From a virus: a stretch of DNA of 64,000 bases. The stretch is from positions 1 through 64,000 of the IMG/VR virus record IMGVR_UViG_3300042332_001447. One strand, 5' to 3'. Position numbers and translations under genes: made by a program. The notes beneath the pieces are model-generated. The model was not told the DNA's origin and ran no database searches. It saw only the letters and a list, made by a program, of their open reading frames with translations. This document shows, piece by piece, positions 13,039 to 22,272 of the stretch (position 1 is the stretch's first letter; each line of letters begins with the position of its first letter).

Positions 13039-14550
13039 CTAAAAATTCCACAACCTTACTGCTCTTGTCGTACCATTTACGTTTAGAAGGAGAAAGTCTC
13101 CAGTAGCTGTAACTGGAGTTGTGAAAGTACTAAGTTCACTTGTAAGTGTGAGATTTGCAGGTTTTATGTCGAGGGTTTGTAAGCTAAACGAGTTTGCAAA
13201 TATAGTACCTGTTGCAGAAATATCCCCTGTAACTGTTAGAGGTCTATTAGGAGCAGGGGTGTTTATACCAACATTACCATCTATAAATACATTTTTCGTT
13301 GCAGACAAGGTGCTATTAACAACGAAAGTGTTACTCGGTAAGGTAGGCCAAACTCCTGTAGGTATATCTACGTTAATACTCACATAATTATCATCTGTAT
13401 TAACATATAGAGCTTTCTGCCCTATATTGAGATGTCTAGTGGCGGATATCTCTCCAGACACTGTTAATTGCTTGTTTGGGGTTGTGCCTATGCCAACGTT
13501 ATCATTTACTGTTAGGTTTTGAGAAACTAGTGCACTACCTATGACATGTAAATCAAACAACGGGGTTAAAGTATTAATACCTACTCTACCATTTGAACTC
13601 TTAACATGTAAAACATTACCTGCTACAGTTAGGTCTTTTTTGATTGACGCGTCACTATTTGCTAAAAGAGAACCACTTAACGATACATTTGTAAGTACAT
13701 CAAGTGAATTATCAATTTTTGTGTATGCGTTTGTATAAAAATTTGTTAAAGAAGGGTTATAAAAGAAACCAGGTCCACTAAAAACCCCATTTGACACGTT
13801 AATTTTACCGGTACCAGATATGTCTCCAACAACAGTTAGATCAGCATTCGGTGTTATGGTGTTAATACCGACTTTATTAGACGTAGAATTAACAAAAAAC
13901 GTATTATTATCCACTCTAAGAGATTTACCTACTACTAATTCCCCATTAAGTAGTGTGCTCCCGTTTACTTGCATGTCACCACCAAATACGACAGCAGTCT
14001 GTATAGTGAAAGAGTTGGTGATGAGAATATTGTCACACGTAATATTTTTTACGAGTGTGCTTCCGTCCTCAATATATAAAGCCCATTTAGGGCTATTGAG
14101 TATTAAAGCGGTATCTGTATTATGGGAAATCTTTGCAGAGTGAGTTTCTTTTGGTGAGTTTGCAGATAACACTCCCTGTAGAACAAAAGGTCCTTGAAAC
14201 GGAGAATCTGGGGACGCAATCGGATCGTACGATGAGTCTGGGTATCTTGGATCAGGGCTCGGATCAGTGTGATGGTTGTGTCTATGGAATTTACTCCTGT
14301 ATACCCAATTTTTTTATATAAGCTAGATTATATTGGGAGTGGACTATATCATCAACCTTACGGTTGCGGGGCGCTATTGAAGTCTTATTGTTTGGCTACT
14401 CAACTTCTAGTCTCTGCACCTTCTTAGTACTCTGTGCCTTCCTAAGCTTGGCTCAGGATTAAGTTTCTCAACTCTTCCCCTGAATTCACCCCGTTTGCAT
14501 ATACTATTACTAGTATAAGCCACTATAAATTAATGGAATCTTGTTGACAT
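13039..14550 (-). CDS. Intron-split fibre-like beta-repeat protein: join(14550..14533, 14295..13039), 424 aa
   Basis: Exon 1 ATG TCA ACA AGA TTC CAT joins in frame to AGT AAA TTC CAT AGA CAC AAC CAT CAC (MSTRFH|SKFHRHNHHTDPSPDPRYPDSSYDPIASP) and runs into the tracked ORF 13039-14172; VGIN/GDISATG repeats. Confidence 0.85.
14296..14532 (-). ncRNA. Group I self-splicing intron, ORF-less, 237 nt, IC3/trnL-like core
   Basis: P1 exon CCAU pairs with GUGG (U-G at the 5' splice site); P2 TATACTA/TAGTATA; P3 CGGGGTG/CGCCCCG; P AATTCAGGGGAA; Q AATCCTGAGCCAAG; R GGTGCAGAGACTAG; S ATGATATAGTCC; terminal G at 14296; P10 AATTTAT with exon 2 GTAAATT. Confidence 0.92.
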
Positions 14551-14795
14551 AAATTATAAAAAATACTTCTCCTTTGTTATATTTAATCATATTTTATAAA
14601 AAAAACGATTTTGTCTCCTCGGTTTCATGTATAATTAATATTAAGCTTATGAATAAAAAAAGAGAAAAAAAATGTTTTCATGTACCTGTTAACTGTAAGC
14701 AGTGCGGAGATATAACCCATCATAACAAGTATTACTACAAAAAAATGAATGGCGTAGTATTTTGTTCTCAGCGTTGTTGCGTTTACATTTCAGGA

Positions 14796-18587: not shown

Positions 18588-20510
18588 GTGAAAACTAAAC
18601 GATCACCAAAGCAAACTGCGTCAAAGCAGAACGCATCAGACGTATCATCTGATATAAGCAAAAAAGATACTTCTCCAAGAGTGCATCAAAGAGAAAAAAT
18701 AAATTTTAATCTCAATATAAAAGGACTTGATTGGACGGAGAAACAAAAAGCATTTATAGAACTTGCTACTCACAAAGACACTAGAGTTGTATTTTTAAGT
18801 GGTCCTGCCGGTACAAGCAAGGCACAGCCTCTTGATGCTAAATTATTAACACCTAATGGATGGCGTTTAATGGGAGACATACAACCAGGGGACAAGGTAT
18901 ATGGTAGAGACGGCACACCTGTTAAAGTAATAAGTATACATCCTCAAGGTATACAGGATATTTTTAAAGTAACGTTTTCTGATGGCACATCGACAGAATG
19001 TACTGATGATCACTTATGGCTTACTAAGACATACTATGATCGTACTTTTGAGAAAACTAGAGAGACTGTCAGGTTATCGCGTCAAAAAAGAGGTTTACGT
19101 GAATTAAAGCATAGTCAAGCAAGAATTGACTCCTCTAAGAACGGTACTGTAAAGACTCTAAAAGAAATTAGAGAAACTTTGTATGTCGGTGGTAGCGAGA
19201 ATATTAATCACACGATACCTATTGTTGATGTTTTACAATTTCCTGCTCGGGAACATATAATACATCCGTATATTATGGGTGTATTATTGGGTGATGGATG
19301 TTTACGTACTCGTATTGGTATAACGAGTGCTGACTCCGAGCTTGTTGAACGGGTAAGAGAGTTTTTACCGAGTGATATGCAACTCAAGTATCTAGACAGA
19401 CCGTACGAATACAAGATCATGGGTAAAGAGAGAAGCACTAACTATTTCTTAAAAGAATTAGCTCGAATGGAATTAAGAGGTAAGTATTCATACAATAAAT
19501 GTATACCTGATGAGTATCTTTTTGATTCACAAGAAAATAGACTGTGGTTACTAAAAGGTTTAATGGATACAGATGGTTTCGCGGTTTCAAAACAAAGCTA
19601 TGTAGGTTTTTGCAGCACGTCTGTTGATTTGATGGATGGTGTTCGTTTTTTGGTAGAATCTCTCGGTGGAGTATGTTCAGCGGGCCATGCCTCTGATGGT
19701 AACGATTATATGTATAATGGCGAATTACGTAAAGGTAGACCGTCATGGTCGTTTTTTGTAAACTTACCTGTAAATCCGTTTAGTTTGAGTCGTAAGCAGG
19801 TATTAGTGAAGCAGCGAACTAAATATTTTCCACAGCGATACATAACAAACGTGGAATATGTAGGGCAAAAAGAAGCTCAGTGTATTTTAGTGGATAGTGC
19901 AGAACACTTATATCTCACAAATAATTGTATTGTTACACATAATACCGCGCTGGCAGTATTCTGCGCTCTTCAATTAATAAACACAAAGAGAGCTAGTGAG
20001 TTAGTTTACGTTAGATCATTAGTCGAGAGTGCATCCCAGAGCTTAGGTTCTCTACCTGGAGAGATGGGTGAAAAATTTAAACCGTTTGCTATGCCTCTTA
20101 TAGATAAATTAGAAGAGTTTCTATGCACAGGGGATATAAAGAAATTATTCGCTGATGAAAGAGTTAAACCTACACCTGTTAACTATCTTAGAGGTGCTTC
20201 ATACAACGCAAATGTAGTTATTGTAGATGAAGCGCAAAATCTCGATTTTAATAAAGAGCTCGTAACTGTTATAACCCGTATAGGTAAATTTAGTAAATTT
20301 TTTATACTCGGGGATCCTATGCAAACAGATCTTAAGCATAAAGAGCAGTCCGGATTTAAGCCTATGTTTGATCTCTTTAATGACGAGCAATCTCAAAAAG
20401 AAGGAATATATTGTGTAGAATTCACTAAGGATGATATCATGCGTTCTGAACTTCTCAAGTTTATCGTAGAAAAAATTGAAAATTATCAAGCTATAAAGAA
20501 ACAAATGTAG
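18588..20510 (+). CDS. phoH: PhoH-like ATPase containing an intein (about 266 aa mature)
   Basis: GPAGTSK|T P-loop, LGSLPG, YLRGAS, IVDEAQN, GDPMQTD, DIMRS. Confidence 0.92.
   Translation: MKTKRSPKQTASKQNASDVSSDISKKDTSPRVHQREKINFNLNIKGLDWTEKQKAFIELATHKDTRVVFLSGPAGTSKAQPLDAKLLTPNGWRLMGDIQPGDKVYGRDGTPVKVISIHPQGIQDIFKVTFSDGTSTECTDDHLWLTKTYYDRTFEKTRETVRLSRQKRGLRELKHSQARIDSSKNGTVKTLKEIRETLYVGGSENINHTIPIVDVLQFPAREHIIHPYIMGVLLGDGCLRTRIGITSADSELVERVREFLPSDMQLKYLDRPYEYKIMGKERSTNYFLKELARMELRGKYSYNKCIPDEYLFDSQENRLWLLKGLMDTDGFAVSKQSYVGFCSTSVDLMDGVRFLVESLGGVCSAGHASDGNDYMYNGELRKGRPSWSFFVNLPVNPFSLSRKQVLVKQRTKYFPQRYITNVEYVGQKEAQCILVDSAEHLYLTNNCIVTHNTALAVFCALQLINTKRASELVYVRSLVESASQSLGSLPGEMGEKFKPFAMPLIDKLEEFLCTGDIKKLFADERVKPTPVNYLRGASYNANVVIVDEAQNLDFNKELVTVITRIGKFSKFFILGDPMQTDLKHKEQSGFKPMFDLFNDEQSQKEGIYCVEFTKDDIMRSELLKFIVEKIENYQAIKKQM
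18822..19943 (+). mobile_element. Class 3 intein (374 aa) with LAGLIDADG homing endonuclease
   Basis: Starts AQPLDA; block B DDHLW; block F AQCILV; ends VTHN|T; MGVLLGDG and LKGLMDTDG motifs. Confidence 0.9.
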
Positions 20511-21030: not shown

Positions 21031-22272
21031 GTGGAAGCACCAAAGACATATTTTAAAGCGTTCAAGTTTAGACTTGATCCCAAAGAGGATCAACTCACCT
21101 TGCTTTCAAAGCACTTTGGTTGCACAAGGTTTCTTTATAACTATTTCTTAGGTGAAAAGATTCGTCACTACAAAGATAACGGAACTACTTTGAACTTTAA
21201 CAACACATGTATATCTCTAACTTCTTTAAAAAAACAAGAAGAATACGAATGGCTTTCAGAAGTTAACGCTCAGTGTCTCCAAGGCTCTTTGAAGAATTTA
21301 GAGAACGCATATCAAAGATTCTTTAAAAAACAATCAAAGTTTCCTCGTTTTAAGTCAAAGAAAGTTAATAGTGACTCGTTTTGTTGCCCTCAGCATGTAA
21401 CCATAGAAGGAAACAAAATCTTCGTTCCTAAGTTTAAAGAAGGCATTCCTTTCACAAAGCACAGAGAGATCAAAGGAGAAGTAAGAAGTGCAACGTTTTC
21501 TAAAGTCCCTTCTGGAAAGATGTACGTTAGTATTCTTTGCGAGTTGCCTTTAGAGACTCCTCTAAAAAAGACAGGAAAGAAGATTGGAGTAGATTTAGGC
21601 TTAAAAGACTTCTTGATAACCTCTGATGGCAAAAGATTTGCTAATCCAAGATTTTTAAAACAATTTTTAAAAGAACTTAAAGACCAACAAAAACATTTTA
21701 ATAGAAAACAAAAAGATTCGAAAAGAAAAGACAAACAAAGACTGAAAGTAGCTTGTTTGCATGAGAAGATAACCAATTCTCGTACTAACATGCAACACCA
21801 GATCAGCTCTTTTCTTGTTAAAAACTACGATCTAATAGCATTGGAGAGCCTTAATGTAAAAGGAATGATGGCTAACCATAGGTTAGCACAGTCTATTAGT
21901 GATGTAGCATGGAGTGGCTTTGTCTCCAAGTTAGAATACAAAGCAAAATGGTATGGAAAGGAAGTCATTCGTATTGAAACTTTCTTTCCATCCAGTAAAA
22001 CATGCAGTTGTTGCAATCAGGTCAAATCCAAACTAACTCTCAAAGAAAGAGATTGGACGTGTGTTTCTTGTAACACAAAGCATGACAGAGATATTAATGC
22101 CGCAACAAATATTTTGCAAAGAGGCATTACGATCTTATCGTCTGGAACAGACGATTACAGACATGGAGCTAAAATAAGACCCGTCAAGGAGAAATCTTTG
22201 AAAGGCACAAGCGTTGAGATGTCTAAAAAGAAGAATGTGCGCAAGTACATTCTGAAGCCGAACGATCTTTAG
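21031..22272 (+). CDS. tnpB: RNA-guided endonuclease TnpB
   Basis: N-terminal AFKFRL..HFGCTRFLYN, RuvC-I GVDLG, RuvC-II ALESL, Zn finger CSCC/CVSC, RuvC-III DRDINAA; catalytic D-E-D intact. Confidence 0.95.
   Translation: MEAPKTYFKAFKFRLDPKEDQLTLLSKHFGCTRFLYNYFLGEKIRHYKDNGTTLNFNNTCISLTSLKKQEEYEWLSEVNAQCLQGSLKNLENAYQRFFKKQSKFPRFKSKKVNSDSFCCPQHVTIEGNKIFVPKFKEGIPFTKHREIKGEVRSATFSKVPSGKMYVSILCELPLETPLKKTGKKIGVDLGLKDFLITSDGKRFANPRFLKQFLKELKDQQKHFNRKQKDSKRKDKQRLKVACLHEKITNSRTNMQHQISSFLVKNYDLIALESLNVKGMMANHRLAQSISDVAWSGFVSKLEYKAKWYGKEVIRIETFFPSSKTCSCCNQVKSKLTLKERDWTCVSCNTKHDRDINAATNILQRGITILSSGTDDYRHGAKIRPVKEKSLKGTSVEMSKKKNVRKYILKPNDL

Follow-up and report, generated by a model that had tools for sequence, protein, structure and literature searches.

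The window analyzed here comprises 64,000 nucleotides (positions 1 to 64,000) of the IMG/VR record IMGVR_UViG_3300042332_001447, which has a total length of 95.8 kb and a CheckV completeness of 45% and stems from an uncultured T4-like freshwater phage. The window encodes baseplate wedge subunits, further tail-fibre and virion proteins, a lysozyme, a clamp loader, and an IS605-type transposase. A 413-aa ORF at 21031-22272 (plus strand) matches the PHROG transposase family phrog_506 (E 1e-125), and a 640-aa ORF at 18588-20510 (plus strand) has matches to both PhoH-like ATPases (E 2e-53) and large terminases (E 2e-36).

The gene of interest lies on the minus strand and is split by a group I intron. 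Exon 1 (14550-14533) consists of the ATG at 14550 and five further codons (MSTRFH), and its last base, U14533, is the 5′ splice-site uridine. The intron (14532-14296) is 237 nt long, starts with an in-frame TAA (14532-14530), and terminates with G14296. Exon 2 (14295-13039) opens with AGT AAA TTC CAT AGA CAC (SKFHRHNHH...) and remains open for 418 codons up to the stop at 13039, such that the ligated product of 6 + 418 codons would specify a protein of 424 aa. The predicted exon junction is TTCCAT|AGTAAA (the bar marks the splice site), and the spliced RNA would read ...AGATTCCAT|AGTAAATTCCATAG.

The host protein has a conserved, histidine-rich N-terminal region of 45 residues, followed by VGINTxxPNxxLTVxG repeats. 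Among its relatives (75 homologues), the other parts vary, and some harbor tail-collar or endosialidase-chaperone domains. This architecture fits a fibre with a conserved anchor, and two PHROG tail-fibre families are matched weakly (E 1.6e-8 and 1.6e-7). The designation as a late virion gene derives from these weak matches, and late expression is likewise presumed. A Pfam search with the host protein gave no match, as did tblastn against deposited phages. A PDB sequence search returned one marginal match, the ESM Atlas returned unnamed viral clusters only, and the AlphaFold2 model, with a mean pLDDT of 46, is of insufficient quality for fold comparison.

The intron is recognized by a covariance model, and its borders are defined by homology. 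The Rfam group I intron model RF00028 has a single match above its gathering score of 50 bits across the window, at 14542-14323 on the minus strand (80.8 bits, E 5.9e-19, full model positions 1-253). The Rfam alignment stops short at 14323, and the 3′ end at 14296 is set by homology, because homologues of the host protein run uninterrupted across the MSTRFH|SKFHRHNHH junction. The exon 2 protein has 58 homologous loci (17 from IMG/VR and 41 from metagenomes), and 49 of these (33 distinct DNAs) carry the uninterrupted start M-x-x-R/K-F/L-H-x-K-F/H-H-R-H-N-H-H. The closest full-length IMG/VR relative (L003) reads MATRFHSKFHRHNHHTDP, and the joined exons of the window read MSTRFH|SKFHRHNHHTDP. 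Exon joining, with the terminal G14296 in place, thus restores the host gene with a junction as in the 49 uninterrupted homologues. The original prediction, made from the letters of this DNA, had placed a 237-nt group I intron at these positions, with a TAA right after codon 6 in the unspliced message and a fusion of MSTRFH to SKFHRHNHH into a 424-aa protein. It had also proposed an Rfam search and a search for intronless homologues with an MSxRFHxKFHRHNHH-type start, and both searches bear it out.

Other borders were considered and rejected. A 3′ splice site at G14323, where the Rfam alignment ends, would join the exons to CTT ATA TAA and hence to a stop. The in-frame G14305 would add the residues VYR, which are found in no homologue. 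A longer exon 1 from the ATG at 14590 is in another frame and stops within the intron or, if spliced, right after the junction. A second RF00028 match, located outside the window (G000:C1:93390-93549, equivalent to L002:1501-1660), scores 20.7 bits and is attributed to chance; an unbroken ORF of 416 aa surrounds it, and a direct scan does not reproduce it.

Neither the Rfam model nor our own intron model detects a group I intron at any of the 58 homologous loci, including L258, which encodes a protein 85% identical to that of the window. The intron is therefore a presence/absence polymorphism at a conserved target, present in the window phage and absent from the 58 homologous loci. The insertion-site DNA, AGATTYCAY|AAYAAATTYCAYAG, is common to very different phages. 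Homing elements exploit conserved targets of such a kind.

The secondary structure is that of a complete group I ribozyme, in which all pairs proposed for P1 to P10 are standard pairs. The core elements named in the original prediction (P1 with its U-G pair, P3, P10, and the terminal G) can all be written in this way, and the two motifs that it had quoted are present, AATCCTGAGCCAA at 14460-14448 and GGTGCAGAGACT at 14420-14409 of the minus strand. P1 (14536-14520) is formed by 14536-14531 and the internal guide 14525-14520 (CCAU|UA with UAGUGG), with the U14533-G14523 wobble at the splice site. Of 102 relatives, 66 have U-G and 10 have C-G at the splice-site pair; the 10 introns with C-G (columns 2/19 of alignment A2) are mostly from tRNA-Gln(CUG) genes. 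P2 (14517-14500) has 7 bp and a GUAA tetraloop (14510-14507). P3 pairs 14493-14487 with 14373-14367 (7 bp) and encloses P4 to P6 as well as the 5′ strand of P7. P4 is formed by 14483-14478 and 14458-14453, P5 by 14474-14470 and 14465-14461 (5 bp, GAGA loop), P6 by 14452-14451 and 14419-14418, and P6a by 14446-14442 and 14427-14423. P7, the predicted guanosine-binding helix, spans 14414-14341, pairing G14414 and 14412-14408 with 14346-14341, bulging A14413, and forming a pseudoknot with P3. An extra 29-nt hairpin with a 6-bp stem (14407-14379) occupies the P7.1 position between P7 and P3′, and is followed by P3′ and P8 (14366-14353, 5 bp, GUAA tetraloop). The 3′ part comprises P9 (14337-14332 with 14309-14304), which has an AU-rich interior and lacks a GNRA loop, and P9.0 (14339-14338 with 14298-14297), a 2-bp element just 5′ of the terminal G. 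In P10, bases 2-8 of exon 2 (GUAAAUU, 14294-14288) form seven standard pairs with 14531-14525 after one A-A mismatch. P9, P9.0, and P10 are read from this one sequence.

The minimum free energy (MFE) fold of the intron recovers P2, P3, P4, P5, P8, and P9 (z = -2.7), and the extra hairpin is likewise taken from it. Covariation was assessed in alignment A2, which contains 104 related introns (102 distinct). In the 102 introns, P2, P3, P4, P6, P6a, P7, and P8 are paired at 93-100%, with both-side changes in 44 of 53 pairs. The paired fraction is 93.5% for P2 (compensatory changes in 7/7 pairs), 97.3% for P3 (both-side changes in 5/7 pairs), 99.2% for P4, 100% for P6, 96.2% for P6a, 99.2% for P7, and 96.5% for P8, which also shows compensatory changes. 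The covariation score is 0.409, in contrast to 0.117 after shuffling (0 of 500 shuffles reach the observed value) and at most 0.11 with slid partners, for which pairing reaches a maximum of 45%. The test covers P2 to P4 and P6 to P8, as P1, P5, and the extra hairpin fall into poorly aligned or insert columns, those of P5 being unaligned in A2. The covariation of P3 and P8 is independent of the alignment because neither helix is in the structure of the model (R1) that made it.

Two class-specific models were employed to assign the intron to a subgroup. R1 was built from 40 tRNA-embedded introns only (alignment A1), and R2 from the core region of tRNA-Leu(UAA) introns of the classical IC3 type, eight in number and all cyanobacterial. 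The window intron scores 121.6 bits on R1 over the full model length and 47.2 bits on R2 (E 2e-12); both scores are inflated, because the training introns of R1 and R2 were selected for the same two motifs that the window intron carries, and the 47 bits on R2 are also conservative, because its RNAalifold structure mispairs the 5′ strand of P3 with the P7′ region. In contrast, three IA2 introns of T4, used as negative controls, score 105, 40, and 36 bits on the Rfam model, at most 14.4 bits on R1 (filters off), and at most 15.5 bits on R2. Because the two models score the window intron high and the T4 introns low, a tRNA-type rather than a T-even-type ribozyme is supported. More than half of the viral group I introns are stated to be of the IA2 subgroup (PMC11835236). 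Paired P7.1 and P7.2 elements characterize IA2; at this position, the window intron has one hairpin only.

The structural hallmarks of IC3 are shared in part. P5 is a 5-bp hairpin and the P5abc-type extension is absent, in agreement with the lack of P5a-d in IC3 introns (PMC11835236). In contrast, P7 is not directly followed by P3′ due to the 29-nt hairpin, and P9 lacks the GNRA loop, whereas GAAA is invariant in the tRNA-Leu set (alignment A3). An insert between P7 and P3′ is also found in many tRNA-Gln, tRNA-Asn, tRNA-Arg, and tRNA-His introns (A1) but is absent from nine cyanobacterial tRNA-Leu introns (A3). The original prediction had likened the intron to the tRNA-Leu IC3 type as opposed to the T-even IA2 type. 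The kinship with tRNA introns and the distinction from IA2 stand, and the identity with canonical IC3 does not; because of the P7-P3′ hairpin and the missing GNRA loop in L9, the intron is better termed IC3-like. The highest-identity sequence among the matches listed is the tRNA-Asn(GUU) intron of a Patescibacteria contig (L142; 75% over 180 nt); the other nearest sequence among the matches listed is a tRNA-Gln intron from Cyclobacteriaceae. In a tree of 104 introns, the window intron is placed without support, and its nearest neighbor by path is an intron in a viral terminase gene (L095).

Introns of this class are widespread. A motif scan (CCTGAGCCAA, a gap of 10-40 nt, and GGTGCAGAGACT) of viral contigs and of bacterial and archaeal genome contigs gave matches on at least 117 viral and at least 120 cellular contigs. 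On the basis of ARAGORN, 98 of the 120 cellular matches listed are located in tRNA anticodon loops, as opposed to 8 of the 117 viral matches listed. The tRNA hosts among the matches listed are mostly Gln(CUG) but also include Asn, Leu(UAA), Arg(CCG), Ser, Thr, Tyr, Met, His, and Asp. At least 109 non-tRNA occurrences of the core motifs lie on IMG/VR viral contigs. R1 gives at least 123 matches in at least 100 viral loci, and several of these loci harbor four to seven introns in succession. The flanking ORFs encode a 45-member major-head-protein family (phrog_1357), an SU10-type major capsid protein, large terminase, family A DNA polymerase, helicases, and neighbouring HNH endonucleases. This distribution shows that cellular tRNA genes share one compact tRNA-type ribozyme class with numerous protein genes of phages. 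The rarity implied by the original prediction is not supported, since at least 109 IMG/VR contigs have this class in genes for capsid proteins, terminase, polymerase, and helicase.

Among these viral loci, L051 (11150-11620, minus strand) and 44 IMG/VR loci of the same cluster have an intron of this class that ends 1-2 bases before the ATG of the major head protein, an ORF of ~391 aa (phrog_1357, E 1e-17). No exon 1 ORF is seen upstream, and the intron seems to sit in the 5′ leader and not in the coding sequence. Tandem arrays of four to seven R1 matches within about 2 kb are found on the viral contigs L057 (3637-5846), L097 (3450-5787), and L083 (2491-3901). The core motifs also occur on contigs labelled Pacearchaeota or Woesearchaeota (L144, L152, and L216), and in L144 and L152, ARAGORN identifies tRNA-Asn(GUU) genes with 258- and 423-nt introns. 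Archaeal group I introns have been described from rRNA genes only, in a study whose authors distrusted their two IC3 hits (PMC6125680).

The intron does not encode an endonuclease, as had been predicted. Its longest internal ORF has 38 aa within 237 nt, such that it is not an intron with its own homing endonuclease. The Pfam domains HNH, HNH_3, and GIY-YIG are found neither in the 95.8-kb record nor in ORFs neighbouring the intron. The intron most likely arrived at its site by recombination with another phage, or by endonuclease-assisted homing from one, at a highly conserved sequence.

Taken together, it is highly probable that the element is a true group I intron that lacks an ORF, has an IC3-like core, interrupts a tail-fibre-like gene behind its sixth codon, is spliced to yield the mRNA of a 424-aa protein, and is carried as a near-neutral passenger. 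Transcription would pass through the intron, and the end of exon 1 (CCAU) would pair with the internal guide to form P1 with its U-G wobble. Free guanosine bound in P7 would attack after U14533. The terminal G14296 would then take the P7 site, aided by P9.0 and P10, and the exons would be ligated. The unspliced RNA would give a hexapeptide only, because the first three bases of the intron are TAA. Since no homing endonuclease is encoded, the intron is expected to persist as a phenotypically near-neutral passenger. A Shine-Dalgarno-like AAGGAG 18 nt upstream of the ATG is rather distant and counts against this proposal. A ribosome engaged in initiation would occupy the exon strand of P1 and might thereby impede splicing.

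This geometry also underlies an alternative in which the intron is kept as an expression switch, with ribosome loading and ribozyme folding excluding each other. Fibre synthesis would then need conditions that favor splicing, such as the GTP level or a late uncoupling of transcription and translation. P1 lies 15-20 nt after the AUG, with its exon strand at bases 15-18 and its guide at bases 26-31 of the coding sequence. The 45 viral contigs in which introns of the same class end just before the major head ATG imply that extreme 5′ positions in late genes recur, and a stop codon that opens an intron has been discussed as a means of keeping ribosomes off the ribozyme (PMC3984707). However, 49 homologues manage without the intron, and a selfish, passenger-like existence accounts sufficiently for ORF-less introns. 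A switch is therefore considered unlikely.

A dead relic would not be spliced, and the gene would give a 377-aa, N-terminally truncated protein from the GTG at 14172 or no protein at all. Gene callers do begin the window gene at this internal GTG, and the resulting shortened ORF of 377 aa (P0001) is recorded from two contigs. An 81% identical homologue of 390 aa (P0003), located on a 9870-b JGI contig, is also called from the equivalent GTG (VLSANSPKELH...). In addition, with an exon 1 of only 18 nt, ribosomes could disturb P1. These points are set against intact core helices with standard pairs throughout, an in-frame exon junction exactly as in the 49 homologues, and the coding sequence between the 3′ splice site and the GTG. 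The latter comprises 41 codons that are open but contain no in-frame start codon. Compared with the intronless L258, 37 of the 41 residues are identical, with a dN of 0.10 and a dS of about 1.5 (a pairwise value in which both lineages are summed), a ratio indicative of purifying selection. This segment, which a GTG start would lose, is the most conserved part of the family, and its residues 7-47 would be translatable in the window phage solely after splicing. A relic is thus very unlikely. The intact core, the exact junction, and the conservation and apparent selection of the 41 post-intron codons point to a functional intron, and from them we infer that the window intron is actually spliced. 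The P0003 gene may contain the same intron as the window gene and constitute a second intron-bearing allele.

An assembly chimera, in which the insertion is real in no phage, is extremely improbable: the record is an uncultured IMG/VR contig of 45% completeness, but the insertion is base-precise and in frame between the correct exons, two contigs have the truncated ORF P0001, and a chimera would not produce a perfect fit of P1 and P10 to the host gene.

Beyond the functional, near-neutral intron favored here, a broader and rather unlikely hypothesis can be formulated. IC3-like ribozymes might constitute a single pool, carried by phages, that moves again and again between the tRNA genes of bacteria or archaea and the 5′ ends of late structural genes in phages. 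Insertion at or near the start codon (codon 6 in the window and pre-ATG in the 45 contigs) would then be selected because initiation depends on splicing.

The consequences for annotation are more immediate. The 377-aa miscall from the internal GTG loses the histidine-rich N-terminus, and the same type of miscall must affect many phage structural genes with ORF-less introns. The range of genes that host tRNA-type group I introns is extended by a tail-fibre-like gene of a T4-like phage. The mechanism is not new. Phage structural genes interrupted by short, ORF-less group I introns have already been published. No description of IC3-type introns in phage protein genes, as such, was found in the literature searched, which is a descriptive gap. 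The most interesting open angle is the site itself, which is preceded by only 18 nt of coding sequence and at which the loading of ribosomes should compete with P1 formation, together with the recurrence of the class at the 5′ ends of late genes.

Several known systems share features with the window intron. The td, nrdB, and nrdD (sunY) introns of T4 reside in nucleotide-metabolism genes, and most of them carry homing endonuclease ORFs. Similar to the window intron, they occur in a T4-like phage and have an in-frame stop shortly downstream of the 5′ splice site. In contrast, they belong to the IA2 subgroup, score at most 15.5 bits on the tRNA-type models, and interrupt genes of nucleotide metabolism and not a tail-fibre-like gene.

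Bacterial tRNA group I introns of the IC3 type, exemplified by those of cyanobacterial and plastid tRNA-Leu(UAA), Azoarcus tRNA-Ile, and Agrobacterium tRNA-Arg, contain the core blocks AAUCCUGAGCCAAG (J5/4-P4′-P6) and GGUGCAGAGACU (J6/7-P7) that are also found in the window. Both have a GNRA loop on P2, a short P5 without P5abc, a length of ~200-260 nt, and no ORF. The window intron differs from the bacterial tRNA introns in its host, a protein-coding gene, and from the tRNA-Leu introns in the extra 29-nt P7-P3′ hairpin, a P8 that is a short GUAA hairpin, and a P9 without a GAAA tetraloop.

Among phages, the huge gut Jug phages harbor 2513 short ORF-less group I introns of ~206 nt in terL, and splicing was confirmed by metatranscriptomes in 37 of 76 cases (PMC12880540). 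In crAss-like phages, MCP is among the core genes that contain group I introns (PMC7886860). As in the window, these introns are ORF-less, reside in essential or structural genes, and lead gene callers to fragment their hosts (PMC12880540, PMC7886860). The window intron is distinguished by its freshwater T4-like phage, its tail-fibre-like host gene, and an insertion site that follows only 18 nt of coding sequence.

A blastn search of 50,697 deposited phage records gave a single match, an intron of Pseudoalteromonas phage pYD6-A (69.5% over 118 nt). This intron, located in the DNA polymerase gene of an N4-like phage (NC_020849), belongs to the same class, with scores of 115 bits on R1, 45 bits on R2, and 88 bits on the Rfam model. 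It likewise splits a phage protein gene, and its CDS is already annotated as joined. It differs from the window intron in that its host is a replication gene and an HNH endonuclease ORF adjoins the ribozyme.
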